From a virus (Duplodnaviria > Heunggongvirae > Uroviricota > Caudoviricetes), in IMG/VR virus record IMGVR_UViG_2541047680_000003: a DNA stretch of 5,317 nt; one strand, given 5' to 3'. Numbering within the stretch: the first letter of the stretch is position 1; every line of letters begins with the position of its first letter. The notes below the pieces were generated by a model. It ran no database searches. It saw nothing but the letters and a program-made list of their open reading frames with translations, and had not been told where the DNA came from. The position numbers and the translations under genes are program-made. Shown here piece after piece: positions 1 through 5,317 of the stretch.

Positions 1-1
1 A

Positions 2-592
2 GAACGCCGTGATCTGTTGAATAACGTTCTGCGCATTGGTGGTTTTATGACACCAAAAGGGAAGCCTAAAGTGCCGGAAGCACTGTTTAAAAACATCTGC
101 GACTCTCTCGGCCTAAAAACAGGAAAACGTCGCGGCAGAGATGGCGATAAGCGCCCGACATTGCGTTTTGTTGAGCCTGAGTCTGTAGCATTTATGCTTG
201 ATATTCTTGCGCAACGTCAGGAGGACGGTATGACGTTGAAAGCTCGCAAGGCGGAAAAATCAACGACCGAAGTGGATCGCGATTTGTCATTAAATATATA
301 TATGAATGGTGAAACGCGATCCACAAACACGGAGGAACAGGATCCTCCTCGTTCAGCTATATCACAGGCTTTAGCCGTATTGCCGGTGGCTGTTCCTGAG
401 TCCTGGGCGATGAGTGCTCTGCCATCAGCTGAACTGGAATCTATCAGGAGGTGGTCAGTTGACAGCATCGCATACACGTTTGCAGCCCTTTATATGACTG
501 AGTTTATGGATTTGCTGTCCGGTCATGAGATTAAGTTGCTGAAGGCTTTTATAGGCCCACGACATGCCAGCGATGAGTTTTGTGCAGTTTAG
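2..592 (+). CDS. Hypothetical protein, reading frame open to the window edge (probably 5'-partial); possibly the C-terminal part of a RepA-like replication protein
   Basis: Frame 2 has no stop from position 2 to TAG 590..592. Internal start candidates are TTG 17 (no RBS) and ATG 47 (weak GGTGG RBS). The coding region contains an ori-like inverted repeat with AT-rich core at 272..324. The RepA assignment is inferred from position and from N15/PY54 origins lying inside the 3' part of repA; no protein motif recognised. Confidence 0.45.
   Translation, partial: ERRDLLNNVLRIGGFMTPKGKPKVPEALFKNICDSLGLKTGKRRGRDGDKRPTLRFVEPESVAFMLDILAQRQEDGMTLKARKAEKSTTEVDRDLSLNIYMNGETRSTNTEEQDPPRSAISQALAVLPVAVPESWAMSALPSAELESIRRWSVDSIAYTFAALYMTEFMDLLSGHEIKLLKAFIGPRHASDEFCAV
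272..324. other. Candidate replication-origin element: perfect 10-bp inverted repeat (GTGGATCGCG / CGCGATCCAC) flanking a 33-bp, about 80% AT spacer containing (TA)5
   Basis: Seen directly: 272..281 is the reverse complement of 315..324; the spacer 282..314 is ATTTGTCATTAAATATATATATGAATGGTGAAA. Three GATC sites lie within 275..344, one in each repeat arm and one in a downstream AGGATCCT palindrome (339..346). Confidence 0.4.
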
Positions 593-603
593 AGGATAGA
601 TGC

Positions 604-876
604 ATGGGAATGGTGCAAGAGTGCCTCGTTTTGATTGAAGGGTATGATCCGTATGTTGTTAACGTCAGTAGAATGGATACTGGCTATAGCGACTACAAAA
701 CTGGTCGTGAACTGCCGTTCACCATCATCAGGATGAATAGCTTTGGCGATGATGATGCTGTTTATTGCTGTATAGCCAGCGATAAAAACATGGAAGACCG
801 GACAGATGAAGCCCGTATGCTATTGAGGAAATATAAGGTAAAGCCGTTATCAGAGAATAACGCTGAGAGGGGTTAA
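604..876 (+). CDS. Hypothetical protein (90 aa from ATG 604; ORF track gives TTG 580)
   Basis: ATG 604 is preceded by GAGGA (592..596) at 7-nt spacing. The start follows the TAG of the upstream ORF closely, an operon-like arrangement. No recognisable motifs. Confidence 0.55.
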   Translation: MGMVQECLVLIEGYDPYVVNVSRMDTGYSDYKTGRELPFTIIRMNSFGDDDAVYCCIASDKNMEDRTDEARMLLRKYKVKPLSENNAERG

Positions 877-878
877 AA

Positions 879-1274
879 ATGGCAGTTCAATCATACAAAT
901 ACGAATCCCCTTTGGATAAGGGATACATTCGTATCAAGTTAAGTCGTTCTCAGCATAAGGCTATTTTTAAGGTAAGGAAAATTCGCATATTGGATGCGTA
1001 TGCGTATTACTACAACGGTGAAAATGTTGTTGTTGAACACTTTCTTGCACGATGGTTTGTAGCTCTGATTTTTGTCCCTCTCCTGTTAATTGGTACTTTT
1101 GTGGATGGTTTTCCTAGTACATGGCGGGAGATAAAGAAAGGCTTATTCCCGCGTAAGTACGGCAGATTTTCGCAAGATAGCTGGCGAGTTATACCGGGTA
1201 AACATTCTGTGGATGAGCAACCGATTGTTGATTACTGGTTGAAGCGTATGGCTGATGCTAAAAAAGTTGATTGA
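879..1274 (+). CDS. Hypothetical small membrane protein (131 aa) with one predicted transmembrane helix
   Basis: ATG 879 is preceded by GAGAGGGG (865..872) and lies 2 nt after the upstream stop. There is a hydrophobic stretch WFVALIFVPLLLIGTFV at about residues 59..75, with basic residues on the N-terminal side. Confidence 0.6.
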   Translation: MAVQSYKYESPLDKGYIRIKLSRSQHKAIFKVRKIRILDAYAYYYNGENVVVEHFLARWFVALIFVPLLLIGTFVDGFPSTWREIKKGLFPRKYGRFSQDSWRVIPGKHSVDEQPIVDYWLKRMADAKKVD

Positions 1275-1292
1275 GTTGTGGAAGGAGTATTT

Positions 1293-1517
1293 ATGAACTG
1301 TAACAAAAATGAAGAAACTCGCCTGGTTTGGACGGTAGTAATCGGAGATAAAAAGGGCGGTGAAGAGCCTCATTTTGATTATTCTGTGGCTTTGCAGGCT
1401 CTCATCCTTGAAGCGCAGAGATACCAACAAGAGATGCAGAAGAACCCTCAACTGGAACCTCGACCAATTGGCCTATTCTGCGAGCGAGTATCAGCGGCTG
1501 AACTCCCTGATATCTGA
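1293..1517 (+). CDS. Hypothetical protein (74 aa from ATG 1293; ORF track gives GTG 1278)
   Basis: Strong RBS AAGGAG (1282..1287) 5 nt before ATG 1293. Last gene of the small-ORF cluster, followed by palindromes and a promoter. Confidence 0.55.
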   Translation: MNCNKNEETRLVWTVVIGDKKGGEEPHFDYSVALQALILEAQRYQQEMQKNPQLEPRPIGLFCERVSAAELPDI

Positions 1518-1530
1518 TGCCCTCCAACAG

Positions 1531-1549
1531 CTGATCAGGTTCTGATCAG
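1531..1549. promoter_or_regulatory. Tandem palindromic 8-mers CTGATCAG-GTT-CTGATCAG (each containing a GATC site); possible protein-binding site
   Basis: Seen directly: CTGATCAG at 1531..1538 and 1542..1549, 11 bp centre to centre; a third CTGAT at 1514..1518. Function is inferred. Confidence 0.3.
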
Positions 1550-1578
1550 TTAGTAAAGCAAACTATAAAAACACCTGT

Positions 1579-1598
1579 CCCCGTGACTGGTCACGGGG
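1579..1598. promoter_or_regulatory. Perfect 9-bp/2-nt/9-bp palindrome CCCCGTGAC-TG-GTCACGGGG: operator-like site or terminator stem for the upstream operon
   Basis: Seen directly. It lies about 20 bp upstream of the -35 of the immunity-leader promoter and about 60 bp after the stop of the 74-aa ORF. It is followed by TAAAATGTCTTTT, which is not a clean U-tract. Confidence 0.35.
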
Positions 1599-1618
1599 TA
1601 AAATGTCTTTTCAAATTA

Positions 1619-1648
1619 TTGACGTGTGCGTCGTTTTGACGGTAAAGT
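1619..1648 (+). promoter_or_regulatory. Sigma70-like promoter of the immunity leader (TTGACG -35 at 1619..1624, TAAAGT -10 at 1643..1648, 18-nt spacer)
   Basis: Hexamer match by eye. A second TTGACG at 1636..1641 has no good -10. No transcription start site data. Confidence 0.4.
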
Positions 1649-1680
1649 TACTACGCTGCGGTAAATCCCGCAGCCGGGAC

Positions 1681-1704
1681 TCTCAACCCCGAAATCCGAA
1701 CGAC
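1681..1704 (+). promoter_or_regulatory. Upstream antisense target boxes (seqA / a1-b1 analogue): TCTCAAC 1681..1687 and CCGAACGAC 1696..1704
   Basis: 1681..1687 is complementary to the single-stranded GUUGAGA of the ncRNA (1814..1820). 1696..1704 is complementary, with one G-U pair, to the 9-nt loop 1799..1807. The order and spacing fit antiparallel pairing. Confidence 0.5.
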
Positions 1705-1708
1705 GCAC

Positions 1709-1731
1709 AACACGCGCCAGCGTGTTTTTTT
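1709..1731 (+). terminator. Rho-independent terminator / attenuator in the immunity leader
   Basis: Stem AACACGC (1709..1715) and GCGTGTT (1720..1726), loop GCCA, with a run of seven T at 1725..1731. It sits between the upstream target boxes and the structured RNA. Confidence 0.65.
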
Positions 1732-1762
1732 GTGTGTATAAGCCTGCGCATATCCGAATTAT

Positions 1763-1838
1763 GGTAGCTCAGGCGGGGCAGCCGAAAGGCTGGCCGGTGT
1801 CGTTTGGGCCGGTGTTGAGAACCCCGCTTGGGCTACCA
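1763..1838 (+). ncRNA. Structured antisense immunity RNA of the P1 C4 / P4 CI / N15 CA type (tRNA-like; probably excised from the leader transcript)
   Basis: A 16-bp closing helix (1763..1778 with 1822..1837, two G-U pairs) encloses a GAAA-tetraloop hairpin (1779..1792) and a second hairpin (1793..1813, 9-nt loop), plus an 8-nt single strand GUUGAGAA (1814..1821). ACCA follows the helix at 1835..1838. The loop and single strand are complementary to boxes both upstream and downstream. No long ORF in 1518..1897. Confidence 0.6.
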
Positions 1839-1849
1839 CCCTATAGAGA

Positions 1850-1889
1850 TTCTCAACTCTGGTGGTAGCACTGTTCTTCCAAACAAGAG
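1850..1889 (+). promoter_or_regulatory. Downstream antisense target boxes (seqC / a2-b2 analogue) abutting the RBS of the first operon gene
   Basis: TTCTCAAC (1850..1857) is a perfect 8-nt complement of ncRNA 1814..1821. CCAAAC (1879..1884) is complementary to loop 1802..1807 and sits immediately before the AAGAG Shine-Dalgarno at 1885..1889. Confidence 0.5.
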
Positions 1890-1897
1890 TGCATACC

Positions 1898-2062
1898 ATG
1901 TTCAAATTCAAATTTGCGGCAGTCGTTCGCACAGACAAAAAGTCACACATCCATCATCTTTCCACTATCGCGTCATCTGAACGGGAAGCTCGTCGCCAGT
2001 TCGCCAGCCGGTTTGTCCTGGTATTGTCTGCCCGTATTCCGGTGCGCGAGGTGGCTGCATGA
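1898..2062 (+). CDS. Small protein (54 aa), first gene of the antirepressor operon; Icd-like by position only
   Basis: ATG 1898 with AAGAG RBS 8 nt upstream. The ORF track shows a longer 1862..2062 form, but that start would lie inside the RNA target region. The stop overlaps the next start as ATGA (2059..2062). Confidence 0.5.
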   Translation: MFKFKFAAVVRTDKKSHIHHLSTIASSEREARRQFASRFVLVLSARIPVREVAA

Positions 2063-2292
2063 ATCAGGTAAAAATGAACACTGTTGGCCTGCTGGAGTCG
2101 TTGGATGAACGTCTGGCTCAGGTCTATGCGCTCGTGTCATCAGCCCATCGGACAGTATCCAGCTGTGAGGCGTCGATTTATCTATCAGAAGCCGGGAAGC
2201 TCCTTCAAATTGCGTGTGAGCTAACACACGAAGCACAGGGGTATTCAGCATCTCTCTCGTCGCAATTGCAGCACAATAAGGAGGCCAAATGA
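2059..2292 (+). CDS. Hypothetical protein (77 aa), middle gene of the antirepressor operon (AntA-like by position)
   Basis: ATG 2059 overlaps the upstream stop (ATGA), with GAGG at about 2048..2051. Its own stop overlaps the next start (ATGA at 2289..2292). Confidence 0.6.
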   Translation: MNQVKMNTVGLLESLDERLAQVYALVSSAHRTVSSCEASIYLSEAGKLLQIACELTHEAQGYSASLSSQLQHNKEAK

Positions 2293-3071
2293 GCGCGTTA
2301 GCTGTATTTTCGTTTCAGGAAGAGCATCAGGTTCGTGTAGTGATGATTGATAGCGATCCGTGGTTTGTAGCGGCTGATGTTTGTAATGCCATCGGGATTA
2401 TCAATCATCGTGATGCTGTTGGTAAGTTGGATGAAGACGAAAAGGGGGTCGGTTCAACAGACACCCTTGGAGGTAAACAGGGAGTGACAATTATCAACGA
2501 ATCCGGCCTCTATACCCTAATCCTCCGCTGCCGTGATGCGGTGAAGCAAGGCACAACAGCTTGGCGGTTTCGCAAATGGGTAACGAACGAAGTCTTGCCC
2601 TCTATTCGCAAAAATGGAGAGTACGTTTACATCGAGCCTGAGCCAATGCGAGCAGCGGAGCCGTTGAACTGGAGGCAGAAAGAGTATCTGCGAGGGCTGA
2701 TTAACGATATAGCACAAAGTTTTCAATACCGAAATGCCTGGATTAGTGGTGTATGGTTGGCTTTGCGTCGGGCGTGTCGTAATCCATCCCCGAACCCCAT
2801 AACGGTTGATGATTTGCCAGCAATTACGGCAGAACTGCGCCGGATTTTGACGGCTGCTGAGTCGGCATTGGGGAACATGCGCACGTATGAACGAGAGTTG
2901 TTGCGTGATGTTGTTCGTGGGGGTAGGCGGAGTATGTCGTGTGGTGATTTACCCATCACCGATATTAACTCTGATCTGGAAAAGGCGTTACCCGCGCATT
3001 TTGAACTGGCAGTTCAAAAACTTGAGCAGTTATCCGCGCAGCTAAAGCCAGCAGAAATCACCAATAAATAG
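2289..3071 (+). CDS. ant: Phage antirepressor with an N-terminal Bro-N-type domain (260 aa)
   Basis: The N-terminal 110 residues (FSFQEEHQVRVVMIDSDPWFVAADVCNAIG ... ESGLYTLILRCRDAVKQGTTAWRFRKWVTNEVLPSIRKNGEY) fit the Bro-N / antirepressor N-terminal domain pattern as I remember it. Strong RBS AAGGAGG (2278..2284). Translationally coupled to the upstream gene. Confidence 0.8.
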   Translation: MSALAVFSFQEEHQVRVVMIDSDPWFVAADVCNAIGIINHRDAVGKLDEDEKGVGSTDTLGGKQGVTIINESGLYTLILRCRDAVKQGTTAWRFRKWVTNEVLPSIRKNGEYVYIEPEPMRAAEPLNWRQKEYLRGLINDIAQSFQYRNAWISGVWLALRRACRNPSPNPITVDDLPAITAELRRILTAAESALGNMRTYERELLRDVVRGGRRSMSCGDLPITDINSDLEKALPAHFELAVQKLEQLSAQLKPAEITNK

Positions 3072-3207
3072 GGTTGACCAGCCCGAATTTATGCCCTTCT
3101 TAGAGAAGGGAAGCCTCGCAGTCGGGGCGGTGATGTCTGTGGTTGCAGCCGCGTTTCCTCCGTTACTTCTGCCCTTTGCAGGGGGCAGGCGAGGTAGGTC
3201 ACACAAC

Positions 3208-3231
3208 AAGGCACCGTTAATTCGGTGCCTT
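3208..3231. terminator. Hairpin between the convergent ant operon and telN; candidate bidirectional terminator
   Basis: Stem AAGGCACCG (3208..3216) and CGGTGCCTT (3223..3231), loop TTAATT. Flanking T-rich or G/T-rich sequence on both strands is only moderate. It lies 12 nt from the telN stop. Confidence 0.5.
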
Positions 3232-3242
3232 TACTGTATGCT

Positions 3243-5126
3243 TTAACCGAAATATGTCAGCCATGCTAACTGCATTGCTGACATGGGGCTGTTTGCACTG
3301 CCGGACCACGCATAATTCTGGCCATTATAATGAAACTCGACAACGTATGAGCCATCACCAATATTTCTCACTGGCTTAAATACCGGCTTAGATACAGGCG
3401 AAGAAGGTGCAGGCGGTTGCTGTTCTTCTACGCTCTCTTCCTCTATCTCAATTTCGTCGTCATCCAGATCGTCATCCTCTGATAATTCATCCGCCAGTTC
3501 AGGTATTGCTTCCAGTTCTTCTTCGTCAGGCATAACGATTTCTGGAGTATCTATTTTCAGTTGCCATTGTCCGTTTTCGCCAACAAATTGCCCCAGAGCA
3601 TCAGCAGCAAATTCCAGGTATCGACTAATCATTGTTGGGCTAAATTTGAACGCTCTTAGAGTGCTGTTCGTGATTTTTATAGAGGGGTCCTGCTCTACCA
3701 GCTGCTTAACTGTGTTATGCAGACGAACCCCGGCATCTCCTCTGGCGAATCCAGGCATTTCGTCATCAAGCTGCTGCAATGCTTCCAGCCTGGTATTTTC
3801 GTTTCCAGTATTTGGCCTCCATGTCTTTGAGAAGTTGGCCAGCTTGAATTGCTTATAGTGTAATTGAGTGTTTTCATCGTCATGGCCTAAGATTTCCATA
3901 AAGAAAACATCCTCATCTACGTTTTTCCAACGAGGATCTACGCGGAAAAACATTTCATACGCAATACGGGCATAAATAGCACGACTATCTTTATAAACAC
4001 GGCGGTTATCTTTGAAAAATGATTTAACCCACGGGTTAAAAGCCTTTGCTAATATGGCATTAATACGTCCGTTTTCAGAGCGTGTGTCGTTATCTCCATA
4101 ACCTTTAACGACATCATCAAAATCAGATGCTGCTGGGCATGAGCGAAGTACATTTATTAAATAAACAAATGTTTTTGCTTCGCATAATGTATATATTTTT
4201 CTGGTTATATCATCAGAAGTTCTTTTTTTAGCTTGGCCTAAAAAATCAACGGTATACTTACCAGAAACAGTAAATGTACCTTGATACATAATCTCAATCA
4301 TTCGTCTTCCTGACAATGCAGCAAGTGCAAATGCCAAAGGAGCCATACCTGAACGAGTGTTTAGATTATTTAATGTAGCAGGGCTATTTATAATATCGTA
4401 AATAGCTTGCATATATTTAGGGTAATCAATGACCACCACGTTACGTTTCTTATTGTGCAGAACGTCCGCCCATCGTTGCTGGATAGATGCGCGTTCGGCA
4501 GGGCTTAGTTGAAGATGATAGAGAATCTCATGGTTAACTTTTAGCTGATTCAACTCCTCAAGCAAGGCAGATCCTTGCTGTAGTAATTTATATAAATAAT
4601 CGCGCTTATCTTTCCAGTTATCGCTAGTTAAATCAGAAATGGCGAATTGCCACTCTTTATATTTATTTGATAATTTTAATAACTTATTATGGCTTTTGTT
4701 ATCACCAATTCTGATATTAGATAAATCTTCTGATAAAGGGAGAATTAATTTTAATTTTGCCTGTAAAGCTGACATTCTCTGGCGAATATCGGCAGCAGGT
4801 AGAGAAAGCCATGACAATAGCTCCTCATTATATAAAGGATACTTTTCAGATAGGCGATGTATATTTTTTTCAAAGCTATGATGAAGTTTATCATCAAACC
4901 GTTTTCTGGCCCTGCTCATATATGCATTGAATGTGTTGGCTGTAATTCTTTTTTCTAATCCTTTCCCCCTAAACTTTCGCTTGTCATTAAATAATGCATT
5001 TTTAAATTTTAATGCAACAGCCTTTATTTTTTTTGTTTTTTCCCCTTGAGGACGGTCAGAGTTATCTATTGACTCAACATCGCTAACAAGTGAGTTTATT
5101 AATTCACCGATTTTTACTTTGCTCAT
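3243..5126 (-). CDS. telN: Protelomerase (telomere resolvase), TelN/TelK family, 627 aa
   Basis: Length and overall sequence match my recollection of N15 TelN (631 aa). Tyr424 in QLHYKQF coincides with the published TelN catalytic Tyr424 (TelK Tyr425). RR at 274..275 and K300 are in tyrosine-recombinase-like positions. An acidic D/E linker (residues about 533..570) precedes a small C-terminal domain. Strong RBS (GGAGAGG on the minus strand) before ATG. The gene is adjacent to a half telomere palindrome. Confidence 0.93.
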   Translation of the reverse strand: MSKVKIGELINSLVSDVESIDNSDRPQGEKTKKIKAVALKFKNALFNDKRKFRGKGLEKRITANTFNAYMSRARKRFDDKLHHSFEKNIHRLSEKYPLYNEELLSWLSLPAADIRQRMSALQAKLKLILPLSEDLSNIRIGDNKSHNKLLKLSNKYKEWQFAISDLTSDNWKDKRDYLYKLLQQGSALLEELNQLKVNHEILYHLQLSPAERASIQQRWADVLHNKKRNVVVIDYPKYMQAIYDIINSPATLNNLNTRSGMAPLAFALAALSGRRMIEIMYQGTFTVSGKYTVDFLGQAKKRTSDDITRKIYTLCEAKTFVYLINVLRSCPAASDFDDVVKGYGDNDTRSENGRINAILAKAFNPWVKSFFKDNRRVYKDSRAIYARIAYEMFFRVDPRWKNVDEDVFFMEILGHDDENTQLHYKQFKLANFSKTWRPNTGNENTRLEALQQLDDEMPGFARGDAGVRLHNTVKQLVEQDPSIKITNSTLRAFKFSPTMISRYLEFAADALGQFVGENGQWQLKIDTPEIVMPDEEELEAIPELADELSEDDDLDDDEIEIEEESVEEQQPPAPSSPVSKPVFKPVRNIGDGSYVVEFHYNGQNYAWSGSANSPMSAMQLAWLTYFG

Positions 5127-5249: not shown

Positions 5250-5290
5250 TATCGGAACGTTAAAAATTGTTCCTTGACTTTGTTCTGAAG

Positions 5291-5317
5291 ATCAGCACAT
5301 AATTCCCCATTATACGC
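5291..5317. other. Half of the telomere resolution palindrome (telO/telRL half-site); the window ends at the dyad centre, implying a hairpin telomere
   Basis: ATCAGCACATAATTCCCCATTATACGC differs at only about three positions from the left half of N15 telRL as I recall it (TATCAGCACACAATTGCCCATTATACGC|GCG...). The last bases CCATTATACGC equal the left half of the 22-bp telO palindrome. Confidence 0.8.

Follow-up and report, generated by a model that had tools for sequence, protein, structure and literature searches.

The repeat element described here, which is embedded in the 3' part of the repA gene of an N15-like linear plasmid-prophage, is very probably the RepA-dependent plasmid/vegetative replication origin (ori) of this replicon, as judged by comparative sequence analysis. 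The window, that is, the whole stretch of 5317 bases that was analysed, covers the telL-proximal end of the replicon. Alignment with relatives shows that the element is homologous, in position and in sequence, to the repeat cluster that was annotated in N15 repA, and the pattern of synonymous conservation indicates strong DNA-level selection that does not depend on the encoded protein. It is built of inverted TGGATC-containing repeats placed around the least stable duplex of repA and is present as a single copy in the replicon.

The replicon and the element in repA

The window belongs to an N15-like (Ravinvirus) linear plasmid-prophage and includes, in this order, the 3' end of repA, small genes, the protelomerase gene and a telomere half-site (Table 1). 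It is 96.9% identical over its full length to Escherichia phage YDC107_1 (genus Ravinvirus), and phage PhiR46_1, in which telL is annotated at the corresponding end, matches 73% of it at 93.5% identity. The gene order in the relatives is the same as in N15: Q and cro point leftward, the divergent cB is followed by repA and the small genes, all pointing rightward, and telN, again pointing leftward, precedes telL. YDC107_1 runs beyond the end of the window as a perfect palindrome whose centre (between positions 10330 and 10331 of L001, the YDC107_1 locus) coincides with the window end, and thus the window ends at a hairpin telomere. The sopA/parB genes and N15-type centromere sites were seen in the complete relatives, outside the stretch covered by the window.

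A first, sequence-only reading of this DNA had placed the element in a reading frame open to the window edge and had proposed that the frame be followed upstream. The frame (196 codons, 2-592) is present as described. In the near-identical YDC107_1, the corresponding CDS, which has the same stop, is 3984 nt long and encodes a RepA of 1327 aa with a Toprim_3 match (Pfam, E = 1.6e-4, below Pfam's cut-off), a Herpes_ori_bp helicase match (Pfam) and a CyRepA1 match (NCBIfam). The C-terminus of this protein is homologous to N15 gp37 and phiKO2 gp35 (59% identity) and to PY54 RepA (34%) in tblastn searches. For the RepA proteins of N15 and PY54, replicative helicase activity has been confirmed experimentally, and both have an N-terminal DnaG-type primase domain (PMC4889955). 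N15 RepA is functional only in cis (PMC3155836). The CyRepA1 literature (PMC10079941) contains no mention of an intragenic origin.

Table 1. Features of the 5317-base window. Strand is left empty where none applies.
Feature	Position	Strand	Remarks
repA 3' end	2..592	+	Last 196 codons and stop at 590-592; primase-helicase initiator of the plasmid prophage
Zone of synonymous-site constraint	248..355		Inferred extent of the candidate origin, about 110 bp; 12-codon windows
Repeat 1, CGAAGTGGATC	267..277	+	Homolog of the first annotated N15 11-bp repeat; holds TGGATC and a Dam site (GATC 275-278)
Left arm	272..291	+	Outer 10 nt (272-281) perfect; inner 283-291 pairs only in the window sub-clade
Degenerate copy of N15 repeat 2 (CGATTTGGATC)	279..289	+	Window sequence CGATTTGTCAT
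AT-rich centre, presumed DNA-unwinding element	282..306		(AT)5 at 294-303; least stable duplex of repA
Right arm	305..324	+	Outer 10 nt (315-324, CGCGATCCAC) perfect; inverted GATCCA and Dam site (GATC 318-321); homolog of N15 inverted repeat 3
Third GATC, inside GGATCC	341..344		Lineage-specific, outside the conserved core
telN protelomerase	3243..5126	-	627 aa; Pfam TelK_N, TelK_muzzle, ResT-TelK_cat and TelK_stirrup, E-values 1e-25 to 1e-50
telL half-site	5290..5317		Telomere palindrome is centred on the window end; distance to the candidate origin about 5.0 kb

Within this frame, the two arms noticed at first, GTGGATCGCG (272-281) and CGCGATCCAC (315-324), are indeed perfect reverse complements, and the 33-nt spacer between them (282-314) is as AT-rich as had been claimed (81.8% A+T), with the alternating run, then read as (TA)5, lying as (AT)5 at 294-303. 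The inverted repeat could be extended to 20-nt arms (272-291 and 305-324) with 80% complementarity and 13 nt between them. Altogether, the element is located 266-318 nt upstream of the repA stop. The claim of a GATC cluster held only in part: all three sites exist (positions 275, 318 and 341), but the first two belong to the repeat arms and therefore do not count as independent evidence, and the third is lineage-specific, being absent from Escherichia albertii pEA26_5 (which has GGATTCC there), from Escherichia fergusonii and from all other clades. Moreover, at least three GATC sites within 70 bp were found in 30% of dinucleotide shuffles. Perfect 10-nt inverted repeats whose spacer did not exceed 50 nt appeared in 20% of such shuffles, and a 10-nt repeat with a spacer of at least 70% AT in 2%. 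Judged within the window alone, the features of the element are mildly unusual at most. Since they are not rare, its significance must come from comparison with relatives.

Conservation among N15-like relatives

For this comparison, we assembled 47 related loci, drawn from viral contigs, the reference phages and several plasmids, and aligned the last 450 repA codons (1.35 kb) in a codon-aware manner; the alignment included 38 unique sequences from 18 clades. The scan of genome contigs yielded a single locus, on a 'Limoniibacter endophyticus' contig, which was excluded from the codon analysis because its upstream frame is broken.

The element could be aligned base for base with N15, phiKO2, PhiR46_1 and Klebsiella-type relatives. 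The depositors of the N15 genome annotated three 11-bp repeats in repA (U63085.1), namely CGAAGTGGATC, CGATTTGGATC and the inverted GATCCAAAACA. These repeat regions, which together span U63085.1 1421-1482 (L003 1466-1476, 1478-1488 and 1517-1527), correspond to positions 267-277, 279-289 and about 318-328 of the window, in which the second is degenerate. TGGATC was invariant in 13 distinct sequences, and so was AATATA(T/G)ATAT across clades. The comparison with N15, phiKO2 and PY54 that the sequence-only reading had called for thus came out in its favor: the element aligns with the N15 repeats, is conserved in phiKO2 and retains its motif in PY54.

Synonymous-codon identity averaged 0.57 overall. 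Twelve-codon windows gave 0.39 to 0.70 when the element and the last, poorly aligned codons were set aside, whereas the values reached 0.77-0.93 across 248-355 (12-codon windows), where amino-acid identity was at its lowest (0.49-0.73). For the 25-codon core, the value was 0.87 versus 0.546 +/- 0.037 (maximum 0.645) in 345 other windows, that is, about 9 s.d. above the repA background, and the scan-wide maximum was located at 266-340. The synonymous contrasts between the window clade and N15 (12/14 versus 97/248, p = 7e-4) and between the window clade and the Klebsiella type (13/14 versus 132/297, p = 3e-4) pointed in the same direction. For PY54 this test is uninformative because the protein-guided alignment is out of register. 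Read at the level of codons, such a pattern of constraint is characteristic of a DNA signal that overlies a tolerant protein stretch. It is conservation across the aligned relatives, and not the in-window statistics, that shows the element to be other than a chance arrangement.

Two further properties were shared by the relatives. When nearest-neighbour duplex stability was calculated along the whole 4-kb repA of YDC107_1 and PhiR46_1, the minimum for both 15-mers and 25-mers fell in the AT centre, and this centre was also the least stable in the parts of repA examined for N15, a Klebsiella-type locus and PY54 (five lineages in total). In addition, the composite pattern GGATC-N(5-30)-ATATANATAT-N(5-30)-GATCC was found in 57 of 58 loci, always at a single homologous position, and two complete 46-48-kb replicons contained it once each. 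The element itself is present, once and at the same position, in all related replicons examined; its absence from relatives with conserved flanks had been named in the first reading as a refuting outcome. The right-arm octamer CGATCCAC likewise had one occurrence in the 46-kb PhiR46_1. The cumulative GC-skew minimum of PhiR46_1 was located at the cB/cro divergence, 8-9 kb from telL, and the candidate ori at 4.6 kb; because the skew follows gene orientation, it gives no independent support for an origin.

Candidate origin and competing explanations

Reports on N15 place both the ori and the initiation of replication within repA (PMC4165912, PMC2847241). The suggestion that an N15/PY54-type origin resides inside the 3' portion of the window's repA is well supported by the homology to the N15 repeats, the synonymous constraint and the single copy of the element. 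That the mapped N15 and PY54 origins would correspond to exactly these repeats is suggested by the unlabelled annotation of the depositors, by statements that the origin is 'within repA' and by the 212-bp origin reported for PY54.

On this basis, the following course of replication could be proposed. RepA, in which a DnaG-type primase is joined to an SF2 helicase able to bind the origin, would attach to the TGGATC repeats flanking the AT centre, melt this centre, load itself as helicase and prime synthesis. Two opposite forks (bidirectional theta) would then reach telL after about 5 kb and telR after about 41 kb, after which TelN would cut and reseal the duplicated telomere palindromes. Speculatively, the Dam sites in both conserved repeats may couple initiation to the methylation state. 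The part of RepA encoded by the element is poorly conserved and is probably an interdomain linker. This would account for a DNA signal being written over the reading frame, as the lambda ori is in gene O.

A conserved element inside a gene need not serve replication. It might be another kind of cis-acting element in repA, such as an mRNA hairpin involved in translation, stability or termination, or the site of some other regulator, and several observations agree with this. The top strand of the window copy folds into a strong hairpin (DNA -14.2 kcal/mol, z = -4.2; RNA -23.9 kcal/mol, z = -4.95, against shuffled controls), dyad symmetry was detected in most clades (z = -2.1 to -3.5), including PY54 with its different arm sequences, and a consensus scan placed terminator-like minus-strand hairpins at 263-280 and 331-350. 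However, none of the 19 pairs showed a compensatory change among 13 distinct sequences, the percentage of paired positions equalled that of the shuffled control, variable stem positions lose their pairing and the inner stem is unpaired in 12 of the 13 sequences. The N15 copy has no significant hairpin at all (z = -0.8). The RNA-structure reading was rejected because of the lack of covariation and the insignificant fold in N15. The invariant TGGATC/GATCCA with the AT core is, on the other hand, what one would expect if protein half-sites flanked an unwinding element, and the recurrent dyad symmetry appears to fit symmetric protein binding around a melting region better than a conserved hairpin. 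No Rfam family was found at the element at E <= 0.1. A promoter reading was also rejected, as positions 1-900 of the window contain no sigma-70-like site. Taken as a whole, a cis-acting role other than that of an origin seems improbable, and the two alternatives named in the first reading, a protein-binding site or an mRNA structure unrelated to replication, found no support.

If the element is an origin, it could in principle depend on host DnaA, with GATCCACA/TGGATC acting as DnaA boxes. CGATCCACA agrees with TTATCCACA at seven of nine positions, and TGGATC resembles low-affinity oriC sites. Nevertheless, we consider such dependence very improbable, given that DnaA-box-like 9-mers with at most two mismatches occur in the window at the level of chance (64 versus 59.2 +/- 7) and that no box with at most one mismatch is located inside the element. 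An origin of the oriC type was rejected because there is no cluster of TTATNCACA boxes and all matches of the element have two mismatches. Mini-replicons of PY54 and N15 reportedly replicate without need of DnaA. Even less likelihood is left to chance symmetry on top of ordinary coding constraint, or to an overlapping gene, for example, the antisense 86-aa ORF at 217-477. Such explanations would be in line with the weak in-window statistics (20% and 30% of shuffles, see above) and with the overlap between this minus-strand ORF and the element. They do not account for a synonymous identity so far above background exactly at the minimum of amino-acid conservation, none of the alternative frames is free of stops across clades, and the constraint spans about 110 bp, whereas the ORF spans 260 bp. 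The overlapping-ORF reading was rejected because the antisense frame is interrupted in the PhiR46 and Klebsiella clades, where it has three stops.

Finally, a SopB-binding partition (centromere) site has a practically negligible probability, although an N15 centromere site has been reported within repA (PMC2847241) and the element is, like such sites, an inverted repeat. The N15 centromere sites (IR1-IR4) are tight 16-18-bp palindromes, GTGCGACCnnGGTCGCAC (PMC7205306, Table 4), whereas the arms of the element are 33 bp apart (13 bp for the extended arms), with AT-rich DNA between them. GTGCGACCnnGGTCGCAC had no match in the window even at three mismatches. In the relatives it sits in the 5' part of repA (L001 1971-1986) and at four to five other places per complete replicon, in contrast with the single position of the composite ori motif. 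The F-type sopC pattern GGGACCNNGGTCCC had no match in any locus.

Variation among the relatives also concerns the number of repeats. The number of TGGATC motifs is four in Klebsiella-type relatives and three in N15, whereas a small Escherichia sub-clade, consisting of the window, YDC107_1, the IMG/VR locus L007, E. albertii pEA26_5, Escherichia coli pS142-3 and an E. fergusonii plasmid, keeps only the outer inverted pair. What this sub-clade lacks is the second left repeat, shared by N15 and every other clade, and the additional TGGATC that the Klebsiella type carries on the right side. The change of TTGGATCT to TTGTCATT or TTATCGTT was observed only here, and the replacement sequence lengthens the dyad, giving the strongest hairpin potential in the family. 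The sub-clade is rare: a search of 5,426 complete E. coli genomes identified 18 homologs, all on plasmids, none of which exceeded 76% identity to window 200-400. As the inner repeats are missing, the geometry of RepA binding may differ. It is conceivable, although rather unlikely in our estimate, that the candidate origin of this sub-clade has been remodelled, the inner TGGATC repeats being replaced by the extended 20-nt imperfect dyad with cruciform potential, so that either two half-sites suffice or a cruciform takes the place of the iterons. Should this be true, and should replication be normal, a single inverted pair of GATC-containing half-sites around an AT core would be sufficient for RepA; alternatively, cruciform extrusion would substitute for the iterons. 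In either case, the variant would represent the minimal recognition unit of this initiator family, and it could mark a separate incompatibility or specificity group.

Significance and comparison with known systems

An N15-type intragenic origin is of a known kind, and a specialist would expect one here; the current view of how N15-like replicons replicate is unchanged. What the present analysis adds is a precise delimitation, a consensus for the family and the minimal two-repeat variant. The candidate origin of an uncharacterised group of N15-like phage-plasmids was narrowed to about 110 bp (approximately 248-355) inside repA. The consensus gained for the family consists of TGGATC repeats, then AATATA(T/G)ATAT, then an inverted GATCCA. 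It should be noted that the element can be detected from sequence alone, as a spike of synonymous conservation in a poorly conserved protein stretch. N15-like elements occur on plasmids in Escherichia, Klebsiella, Enterobacter, Citrobacter and Shigella, and possible uses of these data include the design of linear cloning vectors of the pJAZZ type, the prediction of incompatibility and the sparing of the origin when repA is recoded.

Origins inside the gene of their initiator are also found in unrelated systems. The lambda ori in gene O (PMC7157519) resembles the window in that it lies inside the initiator frame, has repeats beside an AT-rich unwinding region and coincides with a poorly conserved part of the protein. 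Other intragenic origins are the repABC oriV in repC (PMC3155836) and the RA3 oriV at the 3' end of repB (PMC9455977). The origins of lambda, repABC and RA3 have no sequence or protein homology to the element. The lambda ori has four 19-bp iterons on one side of its AT region, not inverted repeats around it. The role of lambda O is limited to recruiting host DnaB via P, whereas RepA combines primase and helicase in itself. Alpha of satellite phage P4 is likewise a single multidomain primase, helicase and origin-binding protein that recognizes short repeats. However, the P4 ori is not part of the alpha gene, a second site, crr, is required as well, and the repeats are unrelated (TGTTCACC type).

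Much closer to the window is PY54, whose element, at positions 27,856-27,916, is likewise located in the 3' part of the homologous RepA gene, with GGATC repeats flanking ATATAGATATA, four GATC sites, dyad symmetry (z = -3.2) and the AT core as the least stable segment. It differs in its arms (GATCTAACTTG/CAAGTTGGATC), and its right arm has GGATCA instead of GATCC and so fails the composite pattern. The PY54 origin is said to be 212 bp long, to lie in the 3' portion of repA and to function when RepA is provided in trans. Host DnaA, DnaB and DnaG are reportedly dispensable for PY54 replication, and RepA is reported to be trans-acting in PY54, in contrast with N15.

The closest known systems are N15 (gene 37/repA) and phiKO2 (gene 35), which agree with the window in replicon type, gene order and position of the element, about 270-320 nt before the repA stop, and share with it the core CGAAGTGGATCGCGATTTG...AAATATA(T/G)ATAT...CGATCCA. 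Duplex stability within repA is lowest at the AT core in both N15 and the window. The DNA flanking the element is about 65% identical between N15 and the window. Unlike the window, which has one TGGATC on each side, N15 has two direct repeats on the left and one inverted repeat on the right; it is almost without hairpin potential, whereas the window has a perfect 10-nt inverted repeat extended to 20 nt. The window also has (AT)5 where N15 has ATATAGATAT, and an extra GGATCC downstream.

The telomeric end of the window and records of related replicons

We found that the window ends precisely where the telomere palindrome has its centre (...CCCATTATACGC|GCGTATAATGGG...). The source sequence is thus the telL hairpin end of a linear plasmid-prophage, and the centre of the replication origin lies ~5.0 kb from telL. 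In the GenBank record of Escherichia phage YDC107_1 (L001, CP025712.1 26413-41742), the sequence runs on past the telomere into an inverted copy of the arm from telN to repA, joined to it head to head, with telN broken into fragments (features 8238-10139 vs 10522-15330 of L001). This inverted arm seems to reflect either read-through of the hairpin by the assembler or a dimer junction that was left unresolved. The repA query also matched two places in many plasmid and E. coli records.

The 98%-identical E. albertii plasmid pEA26_5 (NZ_CP117614.1) is listed as circular. Within its positions 1-4500, a transposase (1962-3170) occupies the place expected for telN, and a protelomerase gene was absent from its listing in the PLSDB gene table, which is itself incomplete. 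If telN is disrupted, pEA26_5 may replicate as a circle, using the same origin. A 52-kb contig (L006, NZ_BMZO01000013.1) belongs to an assembly labelled Limoniibacter endophyticus, an alphaproteobacterium. It carries a Klebsiella-type repA (67% identity) together with the ori motif, and its reading frame is broken upstream of the repA match; the contig may be an enterobacterial phage-plasmid contaminating that assembly.

Repeats and sites around repA

Just downstream of the right arm of the ori motif, GGATCC is enclosed by a short, imperfect inverted repeat (AACACGGAGGA/TCCTCCTCGTT), which still falls within the zone of synonymous constraint. This repeat was limited to the window's sub-clade; other clades have GACGCCCC.CA.TCAGTAAT at that place. 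N15-type SopB centromere palindromes (TGCGACCNNGGTCGCA) were scattered through related replicons, with 5-6 sites each in pEA26_5 and a further relative (L055); one of the palindromes lies in the 5' part of repA, and none was found in the window. GATC was rarer than expected across the whole window (13 sites vs 20.4 in dinucleotide-preserving shuffles). Relatives of the window replicon encode a DNA adenine methylase.

Positions of the features in the window and in the YDC107_1 locus
Feature	Window	L001	Strand	Rfam match
SopB centromere palindrome in repA		1971-1986
Small imperfect inverted repeat	326-353
c4-a1b1 target	1642-1695		+	sub-threshold
isrK	1655-1730		+	57 bits
C4 antisense RNA	1757-1843		+	74 bits
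Bro-N antirepressor-like gene	2289-3071
Inverted repeat in Bro-N gene	2342-2410
Telomere palindrome (centre at window end)	5290-5317	10270-10390

The immunity region

The Bro-N antirepressor-like gene holds a second perfect inverted repeat of 10-11 nt, whose arms begin at 2342/2343 and 2399/2400 and are separated by a spacer of about 47 nt. The RNAs upstream of this gene (1642-1843) represent RNA-based antirepressor control, and their matches fall where the window shares 81% identity with the cA secondary-immunity region of N15.
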